From Planctomycetota bacterium (GTDB lineage Bacteria > Planctomycetota > MHYJ01 > JACQXL01): DNA of 24,000 nucleotides. The notes below the pieces were generated by a model. It saw only the letters and a list, made by a program, of their open reading frames with translations, searched no databases and was not told the DNA's origin. The first letter of the stretch is position 1. Each line of letters opens with the position of its first letter. The translations under genes and the position numbers were made by a program. Location of the stretch: the NCBI GenBank assembly GCA_043808305.1, contig JAZDFB010000016.1:24829-48828 (forward strand), read 5' to 3'. Shown here one piece after another: positions 1 to 23,542 of the stretch.

Positions 1-725
1 TCCTCGTCAACATAATCCCGGCCATGTTTCCCGTGTAGGTAAGTATCGGCATTTACCGATTTGCACATATTTATTATCAGGTCTGTTGCTTTGCCTTCGA
101 CTTTACTCTGGCAGTTTGAGTGTAACGAATTATACTCTGGCAGTTTAAGCGGTAGCGAATTACTGCCAGGTATCCTCGGCTGTAATCCCGCTTCGGCGGG
201 ACTAACAGCCGATGGACTGCCAGGTATAGTCGGCTGCAACTTCAGAGCCCCAGAGGACCTCCCCTTGAGGGGGACAGGCAGCCGAACTATGAGCTCTGAC
301 GATTTGACTATGTCCGCCTTTATATGCATCTGCTCACAAACATAGCGGATGATGGCCTCATTAAGCGCGGACAGATATTGCCATTCCTTTTGATATAATT
401 GGCTGAAGAATTCGGAATATAGGGCAAAGTATGGGGCGGATTGGTAGTTGCGCAGAATACTCATCCAATGCTTCCGGCGCCAGTCCGTGGAATTATCTAT
501 AACCGTATCCTTGATAGACTGGAAATACTTACCCTTGGTAATTACCGGCACCGTAAGCCATATCCAGCCGGTGGCGGTGCGAATTCGGTTGCGGTTTATC
601 CAGCCGAAAGGGCCGCGCTTGACAAACTGGACGGTATCCACTATGATGAATTTATCGCAGCGCGCCGCCTTATGGAAAAATCCTATGTAAGGCAAATAAT
701 TTGGCTGGTGCCCTGCGGCTATCAT
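1..725 (-). CDS. WbqC-family protein; the 3' end lies beyond the left window edge. Carries an in-frame repeat-element insertion
   Basis: Manual minus-strand translation from the ATG at 725-723 stays open to position 1. It reads MIAAGHQPNYLPYIGFFHKAARCDKFIIVDTVQFVKRGPFGWINRNRIRTATGWIWLTVPVITKGKYFQSIKD...SSEL[about 64 aa P/S/G-rich insert]GKATDLIINMCKSVNADTYLHGKHGRDYVDE. The QPxYxPYxGFF / VDxVQF / WxNRNRI pattern is the one I recognise from WbqC (PF08889). The ORF is absent from the supplied track, probably because it has no stop inside the window. Confidence 0.7.
   Translation of the reverse strand, partial: MIAAGHQPNYLPYIGFFHKAARCDKFIIVDTVQFVKRGPFGWINRNRIRTATGWIWLTVPVITKGKYFQSIKDTVIDNSTDWRRKHWMSILRNYQSAPYFALYSEFFSQLYQKEWQYLSALNEAIIRYVCEQMHIKADIVKSSELIVRLPVPLKGRSSGALKLQPTIPGSPSAVSPAEAGLQPRIPGSNSLPLKLPEYNSLHSNCQSKVEGKATDLIINMCKSVNADTYLHGKHGRDYVDE
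100..290 (+). repeat. Composite nested-hairpin repeat (about 2.5 units of modules M1 and M2), copy A, inside the WbqC-family CDS
   Basis: M1 is tactctggcagttt(g/a)agYg(g)taRcgaattactgccaRgtat, with stem ctggcagt/actgccag: a partial copy at 104-131 and a full copy at 133-173. M2 has stem tcggctgt/acagccga at 176-213, and its loop holds a further hairpin tcccgc-ttcg-gcggga. A second, longer M2-like hairpin agtcggctgc...gcagccgaact lies at 228-288, with an inner cccc-ttga-gggg. Copies at 1044-1163 and 18038-18114 match it. Confidence 0.85.
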
Positions 726-737
726 TTATTAATCTGC

Positions 738-1550
738 TTATTGGAATATTGTTCTGGTTTTCCTGATGGACAAAGAACCGGCCGCGAAAGCCTCCTGCAA
801 ACCCAGGGCTTCAATAATCTCGTCCGGCCGGGCCGTGCCCTGATTGGTAACCTTTGTTGTCAGTATTATCTTGTTATCCTCTATTTTGGCATCTTTGATG
901 TATGGCCTGATATCCACGCTTTTCTGTCCTTCAGAACTTTTTCTTATTGCCATAATCTCTTTTTGCCCGAGTAAGCTGTTGATTTTTCCGTGATATTCGG
1001 CCGGGAAATCACCGCCGCCATTGCTTACCCCGACGGAATAGTCGGGATAACGTGGCAGTCCATCGGCTGTTCGAACGTAGTGAGTTACAGCCGAGGATAC
1101 CTGGCAGTAATTCGTTACACTCAAACTGCCAGAGTATAAACTCGCTTTACTCGAACTGCCACTAATGTGGTATTCCACGGAAAACTCTTTGGGGTTATCG
1201 GAAGAATGCTGCGGAGATACTTCGGTAATCCTGATTAACTGCCTGTTTTCATCTATCGAATCCGAAACAAAGAGGGAAGCCAATTGGGGATTAAGCCGGT
1301 TTTGGACTTCGGCAGGAGAAAGCCATTCGGCCAGATGCAGATAAATTACTTCATCGTCTGAAGGAATGCCTAGGCTAAGCGCTCCCAGAAAAGATATTCT
1401 TGGCCGCGGATTGAAGCCTTCGGAAAGCGCAATCGGAATGTCTGCCCGGCGGACAGCCCGTTCGATAAGCGTCATCAGTTCCCGATGAGGAAGAAACCTG
1501 GCCCTGCCGTCCTTGCTAAACCGCACCTGAAAGGTAAATTTCCTCATCAA
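738..1550 (-). CDS. DUF2344 / TIGR03936-like radical-SAM-linked protein, with an in-frame repeat-element insertion
   Basis: The N-terminus FQVRFSKDGRARFLPHRELMTLIERAVRRADIPIALSEGFNPRPRISFLGALSLGIPS matches the DUF2344 pattern (KFxKxGxxRFxSHLDxxRxxxRAxRRAxxPxxxSxGFNPxPKxSF). The internal stretch SGSSSKASLYSGSLSVTNYCQVSSAVTHYVRTADGLPRYPDYS is encoded by repeat copy B. Confidence 0.75.
   Translation of the reverse strand: MMRKFTFQVRFSKDGRARFLPHRELMTLIERAVRRADIPIALSEGFNPRPRISFLGALSLGIPSDDEVIYLHLAEWLSPAEVQNRLNPQLASLFVSDSIDENRQLIRITEVSPQHSSDNPKEFSVEYHISGSSSKASLYSGSLSVTNYCQVSSAVTHYVRTADGLPRYPDYSVGVSNGGGDFPAEYHGKINSLLGQKEIMAIRKSSEGQKSVDIRPYIKDAKIEDNKIILTTKVTNQGTARPDEIIEALGLQEAFAAGSLSIRKTRTIFQ
1044..1163 (-). 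repeat. Nested-hairpin repeat copy B (M1 + M2), about 120 bp, inside the DUF2344 CDS
   Basis: The reverse complement reads agtggcagttcgagtaaagcgagtttatactctggcagtttgagtgtaacgaattactgccaggtatcctcggctgtaactcactacgttcgaacagccgatggactgccacgttat. This is near-identical to copy A (133-220) and copy C across M1 and the M2 stems. Confidence 0.85.
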
Positions 1551-1559
1551 GATGATAAC

Positions 1560-3356
1560 TCATTTAGCGTCTTCTAATAATTTTTCTTGAGATTCAATCT
1601 TCTTAGCCATTTTAACTGAAGTCTCGCTGCCTGTCTTAATAATATGGGGGGTCAGGAAAATCAGAAGATGCTCAGTAGTGTGGGTATCGCTGCGATACTT
1701 GAAAAATATATTGAATATCGGAATATCTCCCAAATAAGGTATCTGTTCAACTGCTTTTGATACCCGGTCTCTTGAAAGACCGCCGATAATGGCCCCCTGG
1801 CCGCTTTCCAACAACAGGTACGCTACTATGGTTGATTGTTGCGTTCTGGGCAAGTCAATGTATTGCTCTCCTGTTCCGCTGTTTAGTTTATACCTGTCAA
1901 ACCCCGGGACCTCGGATGTGTTACCCGTAAGAATTTCCTGCTGCGGTATTATCGTTAACATCACCTGATTAGTATCCTTGATAACGTATGGTAACACCCA
2001 AAGTTGGAAACCCTGCTTGGCGGGTGATTTTGCCGCCTCGCCGATTGAATAAGCAATAGTGCCTGATTGTGAAGATGAAGCGGTGGTTTGGGCAAAACTG
2101 ACTGATTCCCCTACGAATACCGTTGCTTCCCGTCCGTGCAATGTCAGTAAAGTCGGTTCCTGTATAAGCCGGCTTTTTGTATCTTGTTTAAATAGCCTTA
2201 ACGTTGCGGTTATGTCATATTGAGTCAGATAAAGAGGATTATAAGAAGCGTAGGATCTGCCTCGGCCGAACGGAAGACTGCTGATAATTTGATTTGACCT
2301 TGGCGCAGTTAAGCCGCCCATTGTATCCGCAGCGCCTGTCGGGCGCGAGAAAGCGCCGATACCTTTGCCAAGCTGCCAGGCATAGTTTATGCCAAAATTT
2401 AAAAGGTCATCATTAGAAGTAACTATAAACTTCAGCTCAATTAAAACCTGAGGAGGAGCCATATCTAATTTATCAATAATCTTCTGGATTTCATCCAGGA
2501 CAGGCTTGGTATCTTTTACAATAATTGTATCGTTCTCGCGGTCATATTCCATGGTTCCGACCACTGCCCCACCCCTCTTTGTAAGCATATTCTTCAATAC
2601 TGTCAGCAAAGTAAAATCTCTGACCGGATCGGACGGACGCGGAGTTCCAACCGCGTATACCGTGCTGATTGTAGCCTTGAAATCTCCGGGCGGCTTAAGA
2701 TATTTAAGCTGAAAAATCCTGGTTTCCAGCTGTTCCTGTAATGCCTCGGTTTTGATAATCCTGACAACATTGTGTTTCTCCTGGACCATTGCATAACCCG
2801 TGGTTTTAATTATGTTATTAAGCGCTTCCATCCAGGGAATATCCTTAAACATCATCGTGACACTTCCACGGACATCGTCAGCAATAATAACGTTAATATT
2901 GGCCACTGCCGCAATGGCCCTGATCACCTCTTCCAACGGTTGATTCTTAAACGACATCGTGACAAGAGGCGGCTTGCTGACCCGATAAAGGGTGGGCGTG
3001 ATTTCTTCCAATACGCATTGGTTCTGGCGGACAATTTCTTCCAGGGCCAGCTTCCATTCCAAGTTCCGGAAAGTGACCGTTACAATATCATCCGAAGTTA
3101 TGGTAAAATCGGCGACGATGTTGACATTGGCAATTTCTGCGATAGCTTCTAAAGCGGCCCTTAGCGGTTTTTCACGCCACTCCACCGTTACCAATGCCAC
3201 CGGAGTTTGCTCTTTCTCCGGCTGTGAAGCTGCCGGCGCCTTGGCCGGCTCTTTTGACGTTGGTTCCGCAGCTACCGGCGGCGACTCGGCAAAAATCCCA
3301 CCAACCAGCAATAAAGATATCATTCCTACAAAAACAACTCTTAGAAAACATTTCAT
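1560..3356 (-). CDS. pilQ: Type IV pilus secretin PilQ
   Basis: Signal peptide MKCFLRVVFVGMISLLLVGGIFA. Three secretin-N/STN-like modules: LRAALEAIAEIANVNIV, LEEVIRAIAAVANINVII and WMEALNNIIKTTGY. The C-terminal secretin core ends ...VEQIPYLGDIPIFNIFFKYRSDTHTTEHLLIFLTPHII. The gene lies downstream of pilMNO. Confidence 0.85.
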   Translation of the reverse strand: MKCFLRVVFVGMISLLLVGGIFAESPPVAAEPTSKEPAKAPAASQPEKEQTPVALVTVEWREKPLRAALEAIAEIANVNIVADFTITSDDIVTVTFRNLEWKLALEEIVRQNQCVLEEITPTLYRVSKPPLVTMSFKNQPLEEVIRAIAAVANINVIIADDVRGSVTMMFKDIPWMEALNNIIKTTGYAMVQEKHNVVRIIKTEALQEQLETRIFQLKYLKPPGDFKATISTVYAVGTPRPSDPVRDFTLLTVLKNMLTKRGGAVVGTMEYDRENDTIIVKDTKPVLDEIQKIIDKLDMAPPQVLIELKFIVTSNDDLLNFGINYAWQLGKGIGAFSRPTGAADTMGGLTAPRSNQIISSLPFGRGRSYASYNPLYLTQYDITATLRLFKQDTKSRLIQEPTLLTLHGREATVFVGESVSFAQTTASSSQSGTIAYSIGEAAKSPAKQGFQLWVLPYVIKDTNQVMLTIIPQQEILTGNTSEVPGFDRYKLNSGTGEQYIDLPRTQQSTIVAYLLLESGQGAIIGGLSRDRVSKAVEQIPYLGDIPIFNIFFKYRSDTHTTEHLLIFLTPHIIKTGSETSVKMAKKIESQEKLLEDAK

Positions 3357-3367
3357 ATTTTTCTCCT

Positions 3368-5017
3368 TTATTTTTTATCGGCTATTTTGATTGTTAGAAT
3401 TTCACCCCTGTATAAAAATACAACTTCATTTGAAGATATTGATTTAATTGTTGTATCGGGATTTAATTTGGAACCCTCACCGTAAGCCACGTTATTAATT
3501 ATTGCGCTCGAAAAAGGCACATATTCAACATATACAACAGGCAGAGATATTTGATTGCCCATAAATGAGATTTTGACAGAGGGCAGCGTATTTTCCTGAG
3601 CTTTAAGATAATACACAATGCCTGTTATCTTGGGTGGGTTACGTAAGAACTCGATAAGAGTCTCAGCTCTGGCTAAAATTACCTCAACCTCTTTAATTAA
3701 ATCATCTATCTTAGCAACATAGTCTGTGTCTTCAACCTCTCTTTTTTGTCTGAGCAGTTTTATCTGAGAAAGTTTAGGATTTATCCCATCGTACTTCTTG
3801 AGGTCAAAAAACTTCTTGGCTTCATCTCTTAATGATACGGCTTGTTGATAAACAACCGCAGCGATTCCGGAAAATAACCTCTCAGCATCATCCCTGATAA
3901 TCATCATCTGATTTTTAGCCGCTTGAGGACCCATCTGCATCACTTTTGTGTATATATCAAGTATCCTGCCGTATGGTTCGGACATCGCATCGCCCCGTTC
4001 TTCTTCCGGAACCTGTTCGCATATTTTCTTCATCTGTTCCAGTTTTTCCTCGGCTTCTGCGAGCAACTTTTCAATGTCTTCTGGGGGGTTTGTAGAAGTG
4101 ATTTGCGTTGTTTTTCCCGGCTTTGTCAACTTCTGCCTGAAAGGATCATCTCTTCCACGTTTTTCAAATACAGATTTCTCTTCAGCAAGAGCATCTTCTT
4201 TTGTTGTTCTTGATATTATAATCTCACCAAGTTGGTTATTCAGTACAATATGCTCCGTAAGAACTATGCCATTTGCATCAATCACATATTCAATTTCTTT
4301 ATATAATGCTGTGGGGCTGGAAACAATAAGATTGCATCGATATTTTGTCTGGTCTTTCTCGCTCTCGGGCATTATTTTCTCTTTTACTATCAATAAAGCC
4401 GGGACAAAATAATTACTTGTATCTAGTAATTTAATAGAATAACTTTGGTTTATTTCAAGCCCTTGGCTAACTAGATATACGCCTATTTCCTGTCCGGTTA
4501 TATAAGGCTCTTCCGGGTTATTTTCAAATTCCTTGCCTTGCAGATCATTAAATACAGAAATACGGGTTTTTCCGCCTTCAGGAACTGCTTTATATTTCAA
4601 AACAACTTCTTTTGCCGAGGGCACGGTCGCTCTGACTTCCGATTTTATTAGCTTCATCCGGTTTTTTTGGCCTGGCGTTGGGGCTTGGATTTCAAATAAT
4701 ATTTCACCTATGATTCTGGTTCCGGCCGCTTCAATCATTTGCTTTTTCAGTTCCATTTCAGACTTTACTTTATATTGCTTATTTTGATCCGTGGATTGAG
4801 CCACTATTAATTCTATTGTCACAGCCTCATAACCCATTTTCCTTTCCTTGCTTCCGGCCAGCTTCCCTATAATAGCATACCATACTTCAGTTGTATTAGT
4901 CGGCGTGGCTGACTGTTCTCCTTCAGCAAAGATTAACGAAGAAATCGTTAAAATACAAAAAATCACTGCGGTTGTTATTTTGGTCACTTTAACTATATGT
5001 TCAAACCGATTTATCAT
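3368..5017 (-). CDS. Secreted 549-aa protein in the PilP position, with a possible PilP-like C-terminal beta domain
   Basis: ATG at 5017 and an N-terminal signal/TM segment ITTAVIFCILTISSLIFAEGE. The centre is a long charged, coiled-coil-like region (EKLLAEAEEKLEQMKKICEQVPEEE). The C-terminal ~90 aa (ITGIVYYL...SSAIINNVAYGEGSKLNPDTTIKSISSNEVVFLYRGEILTIKI) resembles the PilP/GspC-HR style beta domain. It sits exactly between pilO and pilQ. Confidence 0.6.
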   Translation of the reverse strand: MINRFEHIVKVTKITTAVIFCILTISSLIFAEGEQSATPTNTTEVWYAIIGKLAGSKERKMGYEAVTIELIVAQSTDQNKQYKVKSEMELKKQMIEAAGTRIIGEILFEIQAPTPGQKNRMKLIKSEVRATVPSAKEVVLKYKAVPEGGKTRISVFNDLQGKEFENNPEEPYITGQEIGVYLVSQGLEINQSYSIKLLDTSNYFVPALLIVKEKIMPESEKDQTKYRCNLIVSSPTALYKEIEYVIDANGIVLTEHIVLNNQLGEIIISRTTKEDALAEEKSVFEKRGRDDPFRQKLTKPGKTTQITSTNPPEDIEKLLAEAEEKLEQMKKICEQVPEEERGDAMSEPYGRILDIYTKVMQMGPQAAKNQMMIIRDDAERLFSGIAAVVYQQAVSLRDEAKKFFDLKKYDGINPKLSQIKLLRQKREVEDTDYVAKIDDLIKEVEVILARAETLIEFLRNPPKITGIVYYLKAQENTLPSVKISFMGNQISLPVVYVEYVPFSSAIINNVAYGEGSKLNPDTTIKSISSNEVVFLYRGEILTIKIADKK

Positions 5018-5024
5018 AAAAGAG

Positions 5025-5633
5025 TTATTTTTTTTCGGTATTCGGGGAAATATAAGTATAACTGGTTATTTTTACTTCTAATAAATGCCTTATCGCTGTT
5101 CCGGTTTTTTCCACTCCCATAAGATTTGTAGGCCTTAAAGAAATCTTGTCCACCTTAATAAACCTTTTATTTGTCTCCAGTAAATATATAAAATTAATGC
5201 AGTCGTAGAATTCGCCTTCGGCCCTCAGGCTATAAGATATCTTTTCAAATGTCGGTCCGCCACTGCCGGTCGGAGGACCTGATTTCTTAACTTCATCCGA
5301 CACATTTGCTCCGTGCACGACAAGCTTAGCTTCCTGCGCTATTTTAACCATTGAATTCAAGAAATCCTCATAAAGCTCATCTGTTTTGACAGGGAGCAAG
5401 TCCTTTATACCCTCTTTTTCTTTACGTAATACGTCAAGTCTCTTGTCCAACTCAATCATCTGGACTACTTTGGCTTCGGCTTCTTTTACCTGGACTTTAA
5501 CACTTTCTATTTCACCCTGTATCCTTATTAATTTATTATATTGGATAAAATACCCGTAAATAGCCAACCCAATAGCCATAATACCAGGTATAATAATGGT
5601 TAGAATAAGAAGTTTTCGTTCAGTAAGTCTCAT
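5025..5633 (-). CDS. pilO: Type IV pilus assembly protein PilO
   Basis: 202 aa with a short cytoplasmic N-terminus, one TM (LLILTIIIPGIMAIGLAIYGYFI), a coiled coil and a C-terminal globular domain. Its position between pilN and the PilP-position gene fits; the pilN stop is 1 nt upstream. Confidence 0.7.
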   Translation of the reverse strand: MRLTERKLLILTIIIPGIMAIGLAIYGYFIQYNKLIRIQGEIESVKVQVKEAEAKVVQMIELDKRLDVLRKEKEGIKDLLPVKTDELYEDFLNSMVKIAQEAKLVVHGANVSDEVKKSGPPTGSGGPTFEKISYSLRAEGEFYDCINFIYLLETNKRFIKVDKISLRPTNLMGVEKTGTAIRHLLEVKITSYTYISPNTEKK

Positions 5634-5634
5634 A

Positions 5635-6270
5635 TTAATTAGTCTTAGGGGCTGGTTTGCCCTTTCTTAACTCAATATCGAATTTCAGCGCAAATTCTTC
5701 AGTATAGTCCGGCATTGCCACTTTAACCAGGTTAAGAGCATCATCATAACCCAGATCAAATATTTTTCCCAATTCGGGATGATGCCTTAGTTTGATCCTG
5801 AATTCGGTCATTTTTTCAACGTTATCCGTAGCTGAAAGACAGCCAATGCTAAGGGTATAAGCAACCTGTCCTTTAGCTGAAGCTTTACTTCCACTTCCTT
5901 CTTCGCCCCTGAGAGAAGTAATCCAAATAGTAGGAGAGCCCGATATAAGATCGCATAAATAATCTACTGCTTCATACCATGAAAACGGCCTGGTCGATAT
6001 GACGGAATCAACTGCTTTCTTCCATTCTGAAAGATTTTTTTCTTCAGCCGCTTTCTTCTCAAAATCAATAGTTTGCTGTTGAAGTTTACCTAAATTATCC
6101 TGTTCACTATCCAGAACTTTGTCTTTGCCGCTTAATTTCGCCATCAAGACGGCGTTCCAGAAAACTAATAATAACAAAATTATTATTGCAGCGTTAAGCA
6201 GCAAAAACCGAGGAAGCGGTGTTCGTTCCTTATATCGTTTATCTTCCGGTAATAAATTAATTGTTATCAT
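5635..6270 (-). CDS. pilN: Type IV pilus assembly protein PilN
   Basis: The hallmark N-terminus MITINLLPEDKR is followed by a single TM (FLLLNAAIIILLLLVFWNAVLM). The gene follows pilM directly. Confidence 0.8.
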   Translation of the reverse strand: MITINLLPEDKRYKERTPLPRFLLLNAAIIILLLLVFWNAVLMAKLSGKDKVLDSEQDNLGKLQQQTIDFEKKAAEEKNLSEWKKAVDSVISTRPFSWYEAVDYLCDLISGSPTIWITSLRGEEGSGSKASAKGQVAYTLSIGCLSATDNVEKMTEFRIKLRHHPELGKIFDLGYDDALNLVKVAMPDYTEEFALKFDIELRKGKPAPKTN

Positions 6271-6276
6271 ATTGCG

Positions 6277-7335
6277 CTATTTCATTATTCGCGCGGCCAA
6301 ACCGGTTGCCACAGCAAAATTTGACGCTATTTTCTTAAAATCAACAGGGTCGACTCCATCTACCAATATCTCCAAAGATTCACAAGGATCCCACCTTATG
6401 GGCCTTTTTTCAAAGGTAACATCAATAGCTTCTTCCAAACCGATTATCTGAGAACCGCCGCCCGAAAGGTATATGTGCTCCACTTTCTTATCAGACTGGT
6501 GTTCAAAATAATCGAATGACAATCCTATTTCATGACAAAGCTCTTCTATGATTGAGGCAACAACTTCTTTAACTTCTTCTTGTTTCATGCCGGGGTCGCG
6601 TTTCAACGCCTCAGCTTGGGCGGGTTGCAGACCAATTCTTTTAACGAGAGCCTCGGTAAAATCATTACCGGCAATATGGATTTCTCTGGTAAAATATGAG
6701 TCCGTCCCATAAACAACATTAACATTTGTTTTGGTCGCACCGACATCAATCATGGCCGAAACTTTTTTGTCCGGACTGCTGGCTCCTGCCGTACTGAATT
6801 TCTGGTGTAGTTCAAAAGCATTCCCTATCGCAAAGCAATCCACATCAATAATCAAAGGCAACAAATGCACTTGTTCAATAAGAGCAATGTGCTCCTCTAT
6901 TGTCTGTTTCTTAACTGCCACCAGAAGCACTCTCATTTCCTTTTCTTCTTGATCCGGTTTCGGCTCTTCCAACGATGGCAATGGAGCACAATCAATCACG
7001 ACCTCTTCAACTTCAAACGGAATATATTTGCTGGCTTCGTATTTAATGGCACTTCTTAACTCCTCATCAGGCATCTTGGGCATGGTGATATATCTGACTA
7101 CTACTGACTTACCGGATACCGCTGTTACTACTTTCCTGGTATGCAGCCCGGATGTATCAAAAAATTCCTTAACCGCATCTTTAAGATCCTGCTGAGGCGC
7201 TAAATCTTTAATTCCATAACCGCTTATCACATAACTTCCGGACGCGGTCGGCGAAGGCGTCAGTTCTATGGCCTTTATAGCGCTCGTGCCGATATCCAAT
7301 CCGACTATTGACTTGGTTGTTTTAAGCTTAGCCAT
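6277..7335 (-). CDS. pilM: Type IV pilus assembly ATPase-fold protein PilM
   Basis: Actin-like ATPase motifs IVGLDIGTSAIKAIEL, IDVGATKTNV and IYLSGGGSQIIGL. 352 aa, typical for PilM. Confidence 0.85.
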   Translation of the reverse strand: MAKLKTTKSIVGLDIGTSAIKAIELTPSPTASGSYVISGYGIKDLAPQQDLKDAVKEFFDTSGLHTRKVVTAVSGKSVVVRYITMPKMPDEELRSAIKYEASKYIPFEVEEVVIDCAPLPSLEEPKPDQEEKEMRVLLVAVKKQTIEEHIALIEQVHLLPLIIDVDCFAIGNAFELHQKFSTAGASSPDKKVSAMIDVGATKTNVNVVYGTDSYFTREIHIAGNDFTEALVKRIGLQPAQAEALKRDPGMKQEEVKEVVASIIEELCHEIGLSFDYFEHQSDKKVEHIYLSGGGSQIIGLEEAIDVTFEKRPIRWDPCESLEILVDGVDPVDFKKIASNFAVATGLAARIMK

Positions 7336-7351
7336 AATAAACTAAAAGAAT

Positions 7352-8128
7352 TTAAATCCTTTTCTTGCCTTTACCTTTTTCCTGGCTTTTCATGTAGAAA
7401 TCATTGGCCTCTTTATAGGAGTCTATATCTCCGATATCAAACCAATGATTCTTCATTACATACCCAAAAACATCCCGTTTCTTATGCAACCACTGAATAT
7501 AATATCCGGGCGCATCGGGATTAAGATGCCCGTCCAGATATTCCTTAAATAATCCTAAATCCCTTGCCGGGAATACATATAAACAAATCGCTATTAATAT
7601 GCTTTTAGGATCCGGCGGTTTTTCCTCAAAATCGATTACTTTATCGCTCTTATCTAAAGTCACGACACTATACTGGCTTATTAATTTCCTGTCAACATCT
7701 TTCATATTTTTCAGGGCGATAGTCGGACCGTGTTTTTTATAGTAGCTGATTATCTCGTCAATATTATCGCCGAAAAGATTATCGCCGGCAATAACCAGCA
7801 AATCGCCCTTTATTCCGCATTTATCCACTACAAATTGTATATCTCCTATCGCACCCAGCTTGTTATCATTCGTGGTCGTCTCGTCGTCAACCAAGGTTAT
7901 TTTCTTCTTGAACCGTTGCTGCACCTCAGGCAACCAGTTCTGATAACTCTCATAAAACCGCCGGTTTACCACTATAAAAACCTCGCTGACATCCTTGGCC
8001 GATGACAACAAATCCAATGTCCATTCTATTACTGATTTCCCGGCAATGTTTAATAACGGCTTGGGAGTGTTTTTAGTCAGCGGATAAAGCCTGACACCAT
8101 AGCCAGCGCCCAGAATTAATGCTTTCAC
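7352..8128 (-). CDS. Sugar-phosphate nucleotidyltransferase (NTP_transferase family), GTG start
   Basis: Signature ALILGAGYGVRLYPLTKNTPKPLL (GxGxRLxPLTxxxPKPL). A GTG start at 8128 is preceded by gaggggaaaataag. Confidence 0.8.
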   Translation of the reverse strand: MKALILGAGYGVRLYPLTKNTPKPLLNIAGKSVIEWTLDLLSSAKDVSEVFIVVNRRFYESYQNWLPEVQQRFKKKITLVDDETTTNDNKLGAIGDIQFVVDKCGIKGDLLVIAGDNLFGDNIDEIISYYKKHGPTIALKNMKDVDRKLISQYSVVTLDKSDKVIDFEEKPPDPKSILIAICLYVFPARDLGLFKEYLDGHLNPDAPGYYIQWLHKKRDVFGYVMKNHWFDIGDIDSYKEANDFYMKSQEKGKGKKRI

Positions 8129-8166
8129 CTTATTTTCCCCTCTTTTATTTAATATTTAATCCATTT

Positions 8167-8194
8167 ATGCTAACTCTATAAAAACTAATGTCAA
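8167..8194 (-). promoter_or_regulatory. Candidate sigma70-type promoter for the nucleotidyltransferase-pil gene string
   Basis: The minus strand reads TTGACA (8194-8189), N16, TAGCAT (8172-8167), about 40 nt upstream of the GTG start. The -10 element matches consensus at only 4/6 positions. Confidence 0.25.
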
Positions 8195-8241
8195 TAAAAA
8201 TATATCTTGACCTTCGTAAATTTGATATTATCTTATATTTA

Positions 8242-9414
8242 ATGAAATATCTAGTTTATATCCAGACTTTCGGATGCCAAATGAATAAACTCGATTCCGA
8301 ACTTATCGCCAATGTCCTGGTTGAAAAAGGGTATAAACTGGCGGATAGTGAGGAATCAGCTGATATAATACTTTTAAATGCCTGCTCTGTCCGGGCCCAT
8401 GCTGAAGAACGCGTCTATAACCGCCTGAGTCTGCTCAGCCGTCTGAAGAAATCAAAACCTAACCTGATTCTCGGTCTGGTCGGCTGCATGGCCCAGAAGG
8501 ATAAAGAACTTGCCTTTAAGCGTCTTCCTCAACTTAACCTGGTCTGTGGCCCGCACCGTTATAAAACCCTTGTCAACTTGATTAATGAGGCACAAACTAA
8601 GAAGAAGCATATAAATTGCACCGATCAAGCCGGCCTGCTCTCCGATGAAAACCCGGAGCGGACAAACCAGGCCGTTCCGCCGGATAAGCACTCTTACATC
8701 CAGGCGATGCGCGGCTGCGATAACTACTGTAGCTACTGCATCGTGCCCTATGTCCGGGGCAAAGAAGTCAGCCGCCCTATCCGTGATATCGTAACTGAAA
8801 CCAACTCATTGGTATCCCGCGGCATCAACGCCATAACACTTCTCGGTCAGAACATAACCGCATACGGAGTAAAGAGGAATCCCGCCGGATGGCGGGATGG
8901 ACACAATATGACTTCGGGTAAATCACAAATCAGTTTATCTATCCTGCTCCGCGAATTACATTCTATAGATAACCTAAACCATATAGGCTTTATCACCGGC
9001 CATCCGGCGTTTGTCACCGTCCAGCTTCTGGAAACTATGGCAACCCTGCCCAAAATCCGGCGCGAACTCCATATGCCGGCGCAGTCCGGCTCGGACCGAA
9101 TACTGAAACTTATGAATCGCGGTTACACCGCCCAAGAATATCTTAATATCACAAAAGAGGCTCACCGCTTGATGCCGGATATCAAAATAATCAGCGACTT
9201 TATTGTCGGATTCCCTGCCGAGACCGATGACGACTTCAGTGCTACTGTTGACCTTGTTAAAACGGCGGAATTCTCTAAGATATTCGTTTTTAAATATTCC
9301 TCCCGCCCCGGCACTGCCGCGGCTAAGATGCCCGACGACGTTCCGCTGTCCGTGAAAAAGGAACGGAATAATATACTTCTTGATGTTCAAAAGAAAATAC
9401 ATAACTTACGATGA
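8242..9414 (+). CDS. miaB: MiaB/RimO-family radical SAM methylthiotransferase with no C-terminal TRAM domain
   Basis: Starting at the ATG at 8242, MKYLVYIQTFGCQMNKLDSE is the canonical family N-terminus. The UPF0004 cysteines are present (FGCQMN, NACSVR, VGCMAQ), as is the radical SAM motif CDNYCSYCIVP. The protein ends ...KKERNNILLDVQKKIHNLR, where the TRAM domain normally begins. The track start at 8188 adds 18 non-homologous residues. Confidence 0.85.
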   Translation: MKYLVYIQTFGCQMNKLDSELIANVLVEKGYKLADSEESADIILLNACSVRAHAEERVYNRLSLLSRLKKSKPNLILGLVGCMAQKDKELAFKRLPQLNLVCGPHRYKTLVNLINEAQTKKKHINCTDQAGLLSDENPERTNQAVPPDKHSYIQAMRGCDNYCSYCIVPYVRGKEVSRPIRDIVTETNSLVSRGINAITLLGQNITAYGVKRNPAGWRDGHNMTSGKSQISLSILLRELHSIDNLNHIGFITGHPAFVTVQLLETMATLPKIRRELHMPAQSGSDRILKLMNRGYTAQEYLNITKEAHRLMPDIKIISDFIVGFPAETDDDFSATVDLVKTAEFSKIFVFKYSSRPGTAAAKMPDDVPLSVKKERNNILLDVQKKIHNLR

Positions 9415-10601
9415 ATATAATGAATGATATTAAGTATATGTCCCTGGCGATGAAACTTGCCCGGCTGGGCAAAGGCAAGGTAGAACCTAATCCCATGGTC
9501 GGAGCGGTGATAGTCAAGAACGATAAAATCATCGGCAAAGGCTATCACGAGTATTTCGGCGGACCGCATGCCGAAATAAACGCTATCAACTCCGTCCGAA
9601 ATCCGCGCCTCCTCAAAGGCACAACCCTGTATATTACTTTAGAACCCTGTGTTCACTTCGGCAAAACACCGCCTTGCGCGCCGGCTGTGATTCAAAGCGG
9701 CATTAAACGGGTAGTAATTGCCACCCAAGACCCTAACCCGCTGGTAAGCGGCAAAGGCATCCAGATGCTCAAGACCGCAGGTGTTAAAACTGAATTAATT
9801 AAAAACAGTATTACCAAGGAGATAATAAATATGAACTCACCATTCTTTTGGCGCTACGGCGGACACAACTCAAAACTTCATAAGACCGGGTTGCCTTATG
9901 TCATAGCCAAATGGGCAATGACCGCGGACGGAAAAATCGCTACTATTACCGGAGATTCCAAATGGATATCATCACCGCAGTCGCGCCAGTTCGTCCAGAA
10001 ACTGCGCGCTAAGGTCAATGGCACCCTGGTCGGCATCAACACCGTGCTCAAGGATAATCCTTTGCTTATTCCGCACGGGTTAAAAATAAATTCTAAATTA
10101 AGTGCGCCGTCTCGTATAATCGTGGATAGTAATGCCCGTATCCCGCTGAGTTCGCAAATAGTCAATACCGCCAACACCATACCAACCTATATCGCCGTTA
10201 CATCATCGGCTCCGGCCAAGAAATTGCAAGCCCTTACCAGCAAAGGCTGCATGATAATTAAAACCGCCGCTCCGATGCTCACGAGCGGAGCGCCCCGTAT
10301 CCGAAGGCATCGGGACGGGCGAAAGGCCGTTAATATCAAATCCCTGTTAAAACAACTTGCAGGCCTCGGCATAAACAGCATCCTGATAGAAGGCGGCGGC
10401 GCGATTCACGGCAGCGTCTTTGCGGCCGGCTTAGTGGACGAGGTTTATATCTTTATCGCACCTAAAATAATAGGCGGCAAAGACGCAAAAAACCCCGTCG
10501 AAGGCGCCGGCATAAAACTAATGCACAACGCCTTAGCGCTCAAAAATATGACCGTCAAACGCATCGGCCCGGATGTGCTGATAAATGGATTAATCAAATA
10601 A
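9411..10601 (+). CDS. ribD: Bifunctional riboflavin biosynthesis deaminase/reductase RibD
   Basis: Deaminase zinc motifs GGPHAEINAI and TLEPCVHFGKTPPCAPAV, plus a reductase domain (KWAMTADGKIA, ILIEGGGAIHGS). An ATGA start/stop overlap joins it to the miaB-like gene. Confidence 0.9.
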   Translation: MNIMNDIKYMSLAMKLARLGKGKVEPNPMVGAVIVKNDKIIGKGYHEYFGGPHAEINAINSVRNPRLLKGTTLYITLEPCVHFGKTPPCAPAVIQSGIKRVVIATQDPNPLVSGKGIQMLKTAGVKTELIKNSITKEIINMNSPFFWRYGGHNSKLHKTGLPYVIAKWAMTADGKIATITGDSKWISSPQSRQFVQKLRAKVNGTLVGINTVLKDNPLLIPHGLKINSKLSAPSRIIVDSNARIPLSSQIVNTANTIPTYIAVTSSAPAKKLQALTSKGCMIIKTAAPMLTSGAPRIRRHRDGRKAVNIKSLLKQLAGLGINSILIEGGGAIHGSVFAAGLVDEVYIFIAPKIIGGKDAKNPVEGAGIKLMHNALALKNMTVKRIGPDVLINGLIK

Positions 10602-17935: not shown

Positions 17936-18037
17936 ATAATTTAATAGTACGCAGATCTTCGCTGATTTGCGCAGATAGGCACTAATAATTTATTTAATAG
18001 GTTATCTTAATAATTACAAGTTAATCCTGCAAATCTG

Positions 18038-18114
18038 TACTCTGGCAGTTTGAGCGTAGCGAATTACTGCCAAGTATAGTCGGCTATAACTCACTTCATT
18101 CTAACAGCCGAGCT
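18038..18114 (+). repeat. Nested-hairpin repeat copy C: a minimal M1 + M2 unit, intergenic
   Basis: tactctggcagtttgagcgtagcgaattactgccaagtat followed by agtcggctataactcacttcattctaacagccgagct. It lies between the obg start and the stop of the Wza-like gene. Confidence 0.85.
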
Positions 18115-18134
18115 ACGTTCATCTGCGTCCCTTA

Positions 18135-19015: not shown

Positions 19016-19039
19016 ATCCCGCTTTAGCGGGATTTTCTT
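19016..19039 (+). terminator. Terminator-like hairpin (atcccgc-ttta-gcgggat followed by ttttc) in the divergent intergenic region
   Basis: A 7-bp GC-rich stem, a tetraloop and a short T run, 70 nt upstream of tilS. No annotated plus-strand gene precedes it. Confidence 0.3.
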
Positions 19040-20126: not shown

Positions 20127-20241
20127 ACACTGAGAACACTGAATTTATGGGTTGTTAATATAGTGCACCATCCCGCCATAGCGGGATATAGTTAAAAACT
20201 GCTTCCTACGGATATTTTCAGTGGCTTCAGTGCTTTCAGTG
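20127..20241. repeat. 9-bp-phased heptamer arrays in inverted orientation flanking a hairpin
   Basis: acactga at 20127 and 20136. ttcagtg, which contains its reverse complement tcagtgt/tcagtg, at 20217, 20226 and 20235. The hairpin atcccgc-cata-gcgggat at 20170-20187 lies between them. Confidence 0.6.
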
Positions 20242-21158: not shown

Positions 21159-21243
21159 GAGCCAGTTGGAGCGTAGCGACTTATCCGCAGGACGCCAGCC
21201 GACAAGGCTGAGCGCTGGCGCTTATCCCGAGTCCTCGAGGGAA
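21159..21243 (+). repeat. Divergent relative of the M1 repeat plus a GC-rich hairpin, filling the gap between the fibre gene stop and the orphan fragment
   Basis: gccagttggagcgtagcgacttatcc shares the gagcgtagcga core with M1 (ggcagtttgagcgtagcgaattactgcc). A hairpin gccagc-cgacaaggctgagc-gctggc follows. The motif cttatcc occurs twice. Confidence 0.4.
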
Positions 21244-22344
21244 CTATTCAATATAGCCACGTAACCATATGTTCGTAGAACAAAATTGTCCGTTTTTAGT
21301 GGCTATGACCCTAATCTGCCGTGCGCTATCCGTGGCAATCGTCGCTTCCTTATAAAGATTGTTACAGAAGTTAGCAATGTTCTGCCAGATGAAATGGATG
21401 GCAGACGAACCCCAATCCGTTCCGGCCCTCCGGCCATAGACCCAGAGCTGTTGCTCCAACCCCATCGGCACGGACATAGCGTTGAATTGGATTTCCAGTA
21501 TCACCGCCTTAACCACCGGCGGAATGAACCCCGGCAGGTCAACTATCTGGTCCACGTTATTGGCCGACTGATCCGTAAAGACCATCGTCTGGGACTGAAG
21601 CAGAGTCAGCATATTGCCCGGCGCGAAGCCCTGCCACTGGAAATTAGAGCCGGACTCGTTGTAAGTAAGAACCGCCCCGTTACTGGGCGCATTAGCCGCG
21701 GCCAGTTTGGACGGCTTGACGCAGGCATCCGCAATCTTACCGCTGGTAACAGCAAGGTCCGCAATCTTTTGCTCCGAAACCGCCTGGTCCGTAATCTCGT
21801 CCCCGGTTATTCCCGGCGTAATCGGTCTGGTAATCCCACCGCCGCCCGCCATTGGTTTCCACTCGAACTTAGACTGAGCCTGATTGAAGGTCGGGATTTC
21901 ACCGTCTGCGGGAGAATCAACAGCCGCTAACTTAATTGGTGTTACCTCGCCCGCGCTTATCTTGGACGCCGTAACGGCACCGTCGTTTAGTTTGGTAGAT
22001 GTCACCGCGTGGGTGGCAATCTTGTCGGCGATAACCGCGTTATCCTGCAGTTTGTCGGAACTGACTGCGCCGTCCGCAATCTTGGGCGTAGTCACGGCGT
22101 TATCTTGGAGCGGCACGGTGCTAACATCACTGCCCAGCTTGGCTAATGTAACCACGCCATCGGCGATATCCTCGGTCCCGATTTGGCCTGAGCCGATGTC
22201 AACTGACTTAATAGTCCCGTCCTTAATCTTTTCAGAAGTCACCGCATCATCAGCGATATTTTCTTCGGCCACCACTCCGGGCATCACGCCCGGCACGACA
22301 TTAATAATCTCCCTGGGCTTGGTTATTCTCTCTTCGTATGCCAT
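21244..22344 (-). CDS. Fibre-like repeat protein: two blocks of ~10-aa DxAVTxxKIx repeats plus a C-terminal globular domain
   Basis: Block 1 is DNAVTTPKIA DGAVSSDKLQ DNAVIADKIA THAVTSTKLN DGAVTASKIS AGEVTPIKLA; block 2 is DQAVSEQKIA DLAVTSGKIA DACVKPSKLA. Each block is followed by a related module: AVDSPADGEIPTFNQAQSKFEWKP and AANAPSNGAVLTYNESGSNFQWQG. The start is preceded by aggtgctat. The strand call is supported by the synonymous-site pattern against the orphan fragment. Confidence 0.75.
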   Translation of the reverse strand: MAYEERITKPREIINVVPGVMPGVVAEENIADDAVTSEKIKDGTIKSVDIGSGQIGTEDIADGVVTLAKLGSDVSTVPLQDNAVTTPKIADGAVSSDKLQDNAVIADKIATHAVTSTKLNDGAVTASKISAGEVTPIKLAAVDSPADGEIPTFNQAQSKFEWKPMAGGGGITRPITPGITGDEITDQAVSEQKIADLAVTSGKIADACVKPSKLAAANAPSNGAVLTYNESGSNFQWQGFAPGNMLTLLQSQTMVFTDQSANNVDQIVDLPGFIPPVVKAVILEIQFNAMSVPMGLEQQLWVYGRRAGTDWGSSAIHFIWQNIANFCNNLYKEATIATDSARQIRVIATKNGQFCSTNIWLRGYIE

Positions 22345-22406: not shown

Positions 22407-22443
22407 GTGTGGTCGGGCCCCGCTGCAGCGGGACCACTCACAC
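22407..22443 (-). terminator. GC-rich stem-loop between the 268-aa gene and the fibre-like gene; possible attenuator or partial terminator
   Basis: The plus strand reads gtgtggtcgggccccgc-tgca-gcgggaccactcacac. It begins 8 nt after the stop of the upstream gene. There is no clean U-run, only cttatt. Confidence 0.35.
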
Positions 22444-23316: not shown

Positions 23317-23446
23317 TTTTTACTCATAGAACTTATGTTCAACGGCTATTCTGCTGAGCTCTCGGCAGAACTACCGATCTGACTTTCTTAGTCGCTGTTA
23401 GACCACAGGGAGTTACAGCGACTTAGTCCCGACTATTTCGTCGGGA

Positions 23447-23542
23447 TTATTTCTTCTTCCCCTTCTTCTCCAAATAATCTAAAATGACTTCGACAATTAC
23501 CTCGATAATCCGCCTCCAAAAACCTGACATCATTCTGAACAT
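23447..23542 (-). CDS. Candidate 31-aa small protein: an amphipathic/hydrophobic helix with a Lys-rich tail
   Basis: ATG at 23542 preceded by gagaggatggtttat, a good SD at suitable spacing. Translation MFRMMSGFWRRIIEVIVEVILDYLEKKGKKK*. The hairpin tcccgac-gaaata-gtcggga follows the stop directly. The ORF is too short for the supplied track. Confidence 0.4.
   Translation of the reverse strand: MFRMMSGFWRRIIEVIVEVILDYLEKKGKKK

Follow-up and report, generated by a model that had tools for sequence, protein, structure and literature searches.

How does a long palindromic repeat come to lie in frame within a bacterial gene that otherwise appears intact, and what allows it to persist there? The question is raised by a 24,000-nucleotide (nt) stretch of Planctomycetota DNA (GenBank assembly GCA_043808305.1, contig JAZDFB010000016.1, positions 24,829 to 48,828 of the forward strand), which we refer to in full as the window and in which the gene for a TIGR03936/DUF2344 radical-SAM-associated protein contains 138 nt of hairpin-forming repeat DNA. 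The source lineage is an uncultured groundwater member of Planctomycetota related to Brocadiia. The repeat DNA is an insertion into the DUF2344 gene, and the corresponding site is empty in a sister genome. It is quite probable that the inserted DNA is a non-autonomous palindromic repeat, of the class that comprises repetitive extragenic palindromes (REPs), Rickettsia palindromic elements (RPEs) and hairpin-type MITEs (miniature transposable elements with inverted repeats), and that it arrived after the lineage of this metagenome-assembled genome (MAG) and that of its sister had split.

Comparison with the sister genome (loci L001 and L002, labelled Candidatus Brocadiia bacterium) provides the most direct evidence. 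Its gene order from RibD to WbqC is that of the window, the two sequences stay collinear over window 1-10600 with 78-80% of nucleotides identical, and the DNA alignment is unbroken apart from two large gaps, which are the inserts in the DUF2344 gene and in the neighbouring WbqC-family gene. At the DUF2344 site the sister sequence reads GAATACCGTA/TAAGTAATGGC, where the slash marks the point at which the window has 138 additional bases (GSSSKASLYSGSLSVTNYCQVSSAVTHYVRTADGLPRYPDYSVGVS); these are placed at 1028-1165 by DNA alignment and, equivalently, at 1023-1160 by protein alignment. The closest DUF2344 homologue (78% identity) joins ...EYRIS directly to NGGGDF, whereas the window protein has 46 additional residues. 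In a 46-sequence alignment, the columns of the insertion hold at most 8 residues from any of the 45 homologues and none from the closest one. Domain profiles identify the gene securely and break at the same place: PF10105 scores 127 bits (cut-off 23.8) over 230 residues for 169 profile positions, and TIGR03936 scores 148.7 bits (cut-off 71.9) in two stretches separated by a gap at the insert. The gene comprises 270 codons from a TTG at 1550; NCBI annotation calls the insert-bearing protein intact, with 269 amino acids from an ATG at 1547, and the called protein (MFH1226660.1, our P0001, encoded on a 48.8-kb contig; locus tags of the same MAG begin V1701_) is identical to that of the window. 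A preliminary description of this DNA had proposed that a repeat unit lies in frame within the DUF2344 gene, which the profile match to the unit (E=1.5e-25), the empty site in the sister and the homologues that lack the segment bear out; the 46 residues do not belong to the conserved part of DUF2344, and no frameshift or stop is seen in the gene. Its statement that the insert length is a multiple of three also holds, but not its figure of 120 nt or 40 codons. The limits of 1044-1163 given there missed a terminal CCCGAC..GTCGGG hairpin, and the peptide quoted there as 40 residues has 43.

The WbqC-family gene is interrupted in a similar way. The minus strand of window 1-3356 carries a secretin gene (1560-3356), the DUF2344 gene and the WbqC-family gene (up to 722), and the last contains a longer composite repeat for which the sister genome likewise has a clean empty site (DNA alignment, BLAST breaks). 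Two neighbouring genes have thus been hit, as had been proposed. A repeat search of the window gives inverted matches of 29/29 and 33/34 nt between the two genic copies, and their orientation is opposite, again as described before: TACTCTGGCAG is on the sense strand in DUF2344 and on the antisense strand in WbqC. Both inserts are multiples of three (138 and 186 nt) and stop-free in the host frame; a six-frame census finds two of six frames open in each, one per orientation (1/3), with the host gene using an open one, and the earlier claim that both orientations are free of stops in the frame used is upheld. Predicted RNA folds of the inserts are very stable (-62.9 kcal/mol, z = -5.1 for DUF2344; -98.4 kcal/mol, z = -7.9 for WbqC; both against shuffled controls). 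Table 1 gives the coordinates of these and the other features.

Table 1. Genes, repeat copies and hairpins in the window, with position, strand and basis of assignment.
Feature	Position	Strand	Basis
TIGR03936/DUF2344 radical-SAM-associated protein gene	738..1550	-	PF10105 E=9.4e-37, TIGR03936 E=1.8e-43
Composite repeat in DUF2344 gene, 138 nt = 46 codons, element-forward	1028..1165	-	DNA alignment to L002, BLAST break 1027/1161, protein alignments, decomposition
Outer element 5' arm and loop: TTAGTGGCAGT-TCGAGTAAAGCGAGTT-TA	1137..1165	-	aligns to 5' part of 23388-23448 and L002:828-870
Inner two-hairpin unit, 77 nt: CTGGCAGT-N16-ACTGCCAG then ATCCTCGGCTGT-N16-ACAGCCGATGG	1060..1136	-	nhmmer E=1.5e-25, exact hairpin patterns, alignment A3
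Outer element 3' arm ACTGCCAC and terminal hairpin CCCGAC-TATTCC-GTCGGG	1028..1059	-	minimum-energy fold; same hairpin type at 23428-23445
WbqC-family gene, first 240 codons in window, runs past window start	1..722	-	PF08889 E=5.1e-54, two stretches
Composite repeat in WbqC gene, 186 nt = 62 codons, gene reads reverse complement	104..290 (104/106-289/291 by alignment and BLAST)	+	DNA alignment, BLAST breaks, decomposition
Canonical unit of 79-80 nt in intergenic DNA, flanked by two minus-strand genes	18038..18117	+	repeat search, hairpin pattern, profile
Intergenic outer-subfamily copy: TTAGTCGCTGT-loop-ACAGCGAC then CCCGAC-TATTTC-GTCGGG	23388..23448	+	alignment, decomposition
Degenerate related element, conserved loop CAGTTGGAGCGTAGCGACTTA, other hairpins, between convergent genes	21163..21260	+	repeat search; weak profile match
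Small hairpins (A)TCCCGC-N4-6-GCGGGA(T)	187-200, 8881-8896, 19018-19031, 20172-20185, 22419-22432		

The repeat unit is well defined. Its canonical form, of 79-82 nt, reads TACT-CTGGCAGT-(16-17 nt loop TTGAGCGTAGCGAATT)-ACTGCCAG-GT-ATAGTCGGCTGT-(~16 nt)-ACAGCCGAACTAT and consists of two hairpins, the first with an 8-bp stem (CTGGCAGT/ACTGCCAG) around a conserved 16-nt loop and the second with a stem of 12 bp in which covariation is seen from copy to copy. The lengths of six single units are 79, 79, 79, 80, 80 and 82 nt, none of which is a multiple of three. A profile built from seven units recovers the DUF2344 copy (1056-1137, minus strand) and, at E=2.4e-19, the copy at 132-215 on the plus strand, which had been left out of the profile; nhmmer detects 9 sites across the window and 6 loci with E-values between 1e-19 and 1e-27, the window copies lying at 1e-19 to 1e-26, and the repeat search returns an 83-nt match at 84% to 18029-18111. 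Across the aligned stems 95.6% of cells are paired and three second-stem pairs show compensatory changes, a result that is reached by none of 500 shuffles, and shifting the stem partners along the alignment abolishes the covariation signal. Three versions of the second stem occur (ATAGTCGG../..CCGAACTAT, ATACTGGG../..CCCAAGTAT and ATCCTCGG../..CCGATGGA), and the first stem has compensatory variants in more distant copies (CCGGCAGT/ACTGCCGG in L018; GTGCCAGT/ACTGGCAC in L002, from the sister genome). The loop GAGCGTAGCGA is kept while the stems vary, and the loop GAGCGTAGCGAATT is conserved across subfamilies. Comparison of the 5' end of the unit (TACTCTGGCAGT) with the reverse complement of its 3' end (TAGTTCGGCTGT) gives matches at 8/12 positions, a weak inversion that is due to the relatedness of the two hairpins. 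Rfam contains nothing that matches the repeat at gathering scores; the only sub-threshold hit, to Y_RNA, scores 19.6 bits where 38 would be needed (E = 0.52) and is taken as a chance match on a hairpin.

Both genic copies are composites in which one unit is nested within another, an architecture that the preliminary description missed although it correctly recognised a repeat unit in the insert. The 77-nt unit in the DUF2344 insert is placed exactly between the loop and the 3' arm of the first hairpin of an outer unit. Once this inner unit is excised, the outer parts align full-length with the intergenic copy at 23388-23448 and with L002:828-870 of the sister. The outer 3' part reads in full ACTGCCAC-GTTA-TCCCGAC-TATTCC-GTCGGGG, and in the fold of minimum energy its arm ACTGCCAC forms a stem with GTGGCAGT (1154-1161). 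In the WbqC insert an 83-nt inner unit (133-215) occupies the same position in its outer unit, after GAATTA and before ACTGCC, and bears an additional small hairpin (TCCCGC-TTCG-GCGGGA) within its second loop. Translation of the nesting junction on the opposite strand gives QPTIPGSPSAV. Because this peptide recurs in P0070 and P0071, which are encoded on two further contigs of the MAG, and in P0073 and P0075 from other metagenomes, the composite is an established long form of the family and no one-off.

Members of the family occur in several groundwater genomes. A pattern scan of public genomes and metagenomes identifies true relatives in a groundwater Planctomycetota MAG (JACQXL01 loci L005 and L008, and later L018), in the same metagenome as the sister genome (L012, L014) and in Hainich groundwater contigs (L013, L015). 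Copies are present in Ga0265292 and Hainich groundwater contigs, and on two further contigs of the source MAG (locus tags V1701_). The sister genome itself has a diverged family cluster at L002:828-1010 (TTAGTGCCAGT-AGGAGCGTAGCGACGT-ACTGGCAC plus repeats of GAGTTAGTGGCAGAGC), which is intergenic beside RibD and coincides exactly with the end of synteny at window 10600. Nine of 15 pattern-scan loci (L003, L004, L006, L007, L009, L010, L011, L016, L017) are chance matches that contain only the searched pattern and lack the remaining unit. Long tandem repeat arrays lie a few hundred bases from repeat copies at L018:10230-10640, L013:3258-3690 and L015:590-1387. Repeat copies are also called as small hypothetical open reading frames (ORFs), as in P0071, P0073, P0075 and P0077, and a 497-residue protein of the source MAG (P0070) probably owes a false N-terminus to a repeat copy. 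A search with the 66-residue WbqC insert peptide returns four true repeat-derived ORFs plus three small ORFs; P0072, P0074 and P0076 from this search were discarded as spurious repetitive proteins. The 46-residue DUF2344 insert peptide gives no candidates in the protein database, within the limits of the word index used. Such repeats are of practical concern: they lengthen predicted proteins, create spurious small ORFs and false N-termini, and can break MAG assemblies.

Filled and empty sites constrain how the repeat moves. Target-site duplications, which the preliminary description had suggested looking for, are absent from both sites with a known empty allele (DUF2344 and WbqC): the sister sequences are CCGTA^TAAGT and ACGT^TAAGT (the caret marks the insertion point), and the filled sites have no duplicated host bases. 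The leading TTAGT and TACTC are element sequence, common to independent copies. A 5-base duplication at the DUF2344 site (TTAGT...TAAGC) was rejected, as TTAGT also starts the copies at 23388 and L002:828, and a TA duplication is ruled out because the lengths at the two empty sites do not add up under it. In element orientation, each of these sites is followed on its 3' side by TAAGT; the common flank may be a coincidence, since nine other copies lack it. A classical MITE with terminal inverted repeats, moved by cut-and-paste with a DDE transposase (for example IS630/Tc1-like at TA), would fit units that start with TA and end with TA(T), the weak inversion of their ends (8/12 nt) and the many 5' flanks of TTA or TTTA. 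As an account of the movement it is nevertheless unlikely: the extra DNA amounts to 138 and 186 nt, uncertain by 0-1 nt, and contains no duplication, lengths that a TA duplication misfits, and the leading bases belong to the element. From the lack of duplication together with the conserved hairpins and conserved loop we infer that the evidence leans towards handling as single-stranded DNA by an HUH-type enzyme (HUH/RAYT or IS200/IS605-like, RAYT denoting the REP-associated tyrosine transposases) that would recognise the hairpins; handling of this type has been proposed for REPs and RAYTs (PMC3733652). No GTAG/CGTC tag adjoins the stems in alignment A3, where the flanks are TACT and GT for the first hairpin and GT and T/G for the second, and GTAG is found only inside the first-hairpin loop, in 5/8 aligned units.

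Insertion itself is blind to frame, as shown at L008:797-1244 (JACQXL010000105.1), where a unit splits an ORF6N-family gene between FPEEF and MFQLT and brings both a frameshift and a TAG stop; the disrupted gene is adjoined at 182-703 by an intact paralogue of 173 residues. We favour an account in which the element would land in genes at random, without target-site duplication, moved by a trans-acting enzyme that may recognise single-strand hairpins, and in which in-frame genic copies would be the residue left by selection from frame-blind insertions. The DUF2344 copy persists because its length is a multiple of three, its phase is stop-free and it lies in a variable interdomain linker; it would be translated passively and be neutral or slightly deleterious. 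Homologues vary in length at the insertion point. An AlphaFold2 model from the 46-sequence alignment (predicted template modelling score 0.79) gives both domains a predicted local distance difference test (pLDDT) score >90 and residues ~131-178 a pLDDT of 35-53, in a loop between a strand (122-130) and a helix (184-194), from which the 46-residue insert is probably a disordered, polar interdomain loop. The ratio of nonsynonymous to synonymous substitution (dN/dS) relative to the sister is 0.14 for DUF2344 overall (0.09 upstream of the insert and 0.19 downstream), 0.04 for WbqC and 0.05-0.09 for neighbouring genes. The open frame and the DUF2344 value of 0.14 lend indirect support to the idea that the insert may be translated as part of a functional protein, and a peptide such as ASLYSGSLSVTNYCQVSSAVTHYVR would mark that translation. 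As a separate observation, the predicted DUF2344 fold resembles TruA/Pus1-type pseudouridine synthases in its two tandem alpha/beta domains (Foldseek E = 1e-6, TM ~0.48, 11% identity), and no sequence-level PDB relative was found.

Several points weigh against this account. The window and ~100 kb of related loci yielded no transposase or RAYT gene, which leaves the means of movement as conjecture; none of the 24 window ORFs matches the Y1_Tnp Pfam family, and six-frame translations of the window and of the family-bearing and sister loci contain no HUH...Y motif. Single units are open in 12/36 frames, compared with a chance value of ~0.29 for 26 codons. At this rate, which is about that of chance, the idea that repeat units are adapted for coding by being open in many frames was rejected. 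Synonymous divergence from the sister is ~1, yet the two genic copies are almost identical over the stretches given above; the insertions could be far more recent than the divergence that dN/dS covers, and for that reason dN/dS does not speak for constraint after insertion. The sequence source is a MAG, and with ~14 family members examined the contrast in length and frame rests on small numbers.

A possible recency of the insertions is also what gives some plausibility to a young pseudogene, in which insertion would have inactivated DUF2344 and stops or frameshifts would have yet to accumulate. Near-identical repeat segments in the two genic copies suggest recent events, and dN/dS averages a much longer history than that of the insertion. 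This possibility is nonetheless slight: two adjacent genes both have open-frame inserts with lengths that are multiples of three, which would be expected in ~1/81 cases if unselected, the insert sits in a variable interdomain loop outside core elements, and the part of the gene downstream of the insert still has the dN/dS of 0.19. Co-option has a somewhat smaller chance of being correct. An RNA hairpin could act on the mRNA through its stability, through RNase processing or through pausing or bypass by the ribosome, or else the loop of 46 residues could give the protein a further function, and the very stable predicted RNA structure, stems held by compensatory change, the loop GAGCGTAGCGAATT conserved across subfamilies and the position of intergenic copies at gene 3' ends, like regulatory REPs, are compatible with this. 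Stem conservation is, however, family-wide and extends to intergenic and gene-disrupting copies, so it reflects needs of the element itself, and neither the sister genome nor any homologue has the insert. For bypass or excision, a length divisible by three and an open frame would be unnecessary, yet both are present.

Assembly error is a very improbable explanation. Metagenome assembly classically goes wrong at dispersed repeats, and a repeat-induced chimera in the MAG contig might be suspected, but both flanks are collinear with the sister in the same gene and the same frame, the downstream half of the gene would not reappear after a chimeric join, and the composite architecture recurs on other contigs. 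Least probable of all is an ancestral segment deleted in the sister, or a local duplication or slippage: polarity from two close genomes requires outgroups, but this reading is already contradicted, as 45/45 more distant homologues lack the segment and copies of the sequence are found at unrelated loci of several genomes.

Insertion of a mobile palindromic repeat thus remains the favoured explanation, and the repeat is a new family of a phenomenon already known. In-frame palindromic repeats in genes are known as RPEs (Ogata et al. 2000, Science 290:347, summarised in PMC10969869), and intragenic REP dimers or clusters that code for 20-82 residues have been reported from Thauera, Xanthomonas, Opitutus terrae (which also belongs to the Planctomycetes-Verrucomicrobia-Chlamydiae, or PVC, superphylum) and further bacteria (Di Nocera et al. 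2013, PMC3733652). The present repeats resemble RPEs as dispersed palindromic sequences of ~100-150 nt that lie in frame inside unrelated housekeeping genes and also between genes, are translated (here by prediction) as extra segments compatible with the host fold, and have no known autonomous partner. They are likened to and set apart from RPEs by description: RPE hosts are obligate intracellular alphaproteobacteria, whereas the source here is a free-living groundwater Planctomycetota MAG, and the present element is modular, with ~80-nt two-hairpin units nested in one another. With GTAG/CGTC REPs and the REPIN/RAYT system they share short stem-loops with 6-13 bp stems that are single, dimeric or grouped, a location mostly at gene 3' ends and sometimes within genes (coding 20-82 residues), the absence of target duplication and stems kept by compensatory change. 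They differ in that the stems have no adjoining tag, no RAYT gene occurs in the DNA examined, and two different hairpins form direct pairs, whereas REPs in REPINs form inverted doublets.

Mosaic hairpin modules in variable number with occasional in-frame intragenic copies are likewise typical of BIME (E. coli), BOX (pneumococcal), Correia/NEMIS and ERIC sequences; Correia-type elements are bounded by clear terminal inverted repeats and flanked by a TA duplication, whereas the present copies show no clear inverted repeats at their ends and no duplication, and the module sequences are unrelated. Palindrome-associated transposable elements (PATEs), derived from IS200/IS605, similarly have subterminal hairpins and no target duplication, and the possible fixed flank (^TAAGT at both empty sites) would add to the likeness. 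The TAAGT flank is nevertheless not found at other copies, the DNA examined contains no TnpA/TnpB gene, and the asymmetric left and right ends typical of PATEs are not demonstrated here. In-frame selfish DNA in conserved genes is best known from Rickettsia and a few REP-rich bacteria, to which an apparently unrelated family is now added. Two adjacent genes provide clean pairs of filled and empty sites, which makes this a tractable case for the spread of palindromic repeats without target duplication, for nesting at a fixed hairpin point and for the insertion tolerance of interdomain loops.

Within the 10.6-kb stretch that is syntenic with the sister, 4/10 genes have in-frame, hairpin-containing extras (DUF2344, WbqC, MiaB-like radical SAM and RibD). 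A broader reading, in which this lineage carries an unusually dense load of coding-compatible hairpin DNA with elements that nest at a fixed position, is doubtful. If it were true, with an in-frame excess beyond that left by selection or with bypass or removal at the RNA level, the lineage would be a free-living bacterial counterpart to Rickettsia and its RPEs, and the insertion mechanism would possibly be new and aimed at hairpin loop-stem junctions. Interest would rise if a genome-wide census bore out the density that the window suggests.

The extras in the two other genes are shorter. The MiaB-like radical SAM gene (8188-9414) has 16 additional in-frame residues relative to the sister (VKRNPAGWRDGHNMTS; window 8869-8945, plus strand), and the extra DNA holds a mini-hairpin, ATCCCGCC-GGAT-GGCGGGAT. 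RibD (9411-10601, plus strand) has two in-frame extras, one at 9848-9877 (8 residues, WRYGGHNS) and one at 10261-10316 (~16 residues, AAPMLTSGAPRIRRHR); the second contains a hairpin, CGCTCCG-N10-CGGAGCG. A separate small-hairpin family, (A)TCCCGC-N4-6-GCGGGA(T), occurs five times in the window compared with 0.4 expected, with three sites in intergenic DNA, one within a gene and one that forms part of the WbqC insert. In L005, near position 1048, a hairpin of similar kind lies just upstream of the repeat unit.

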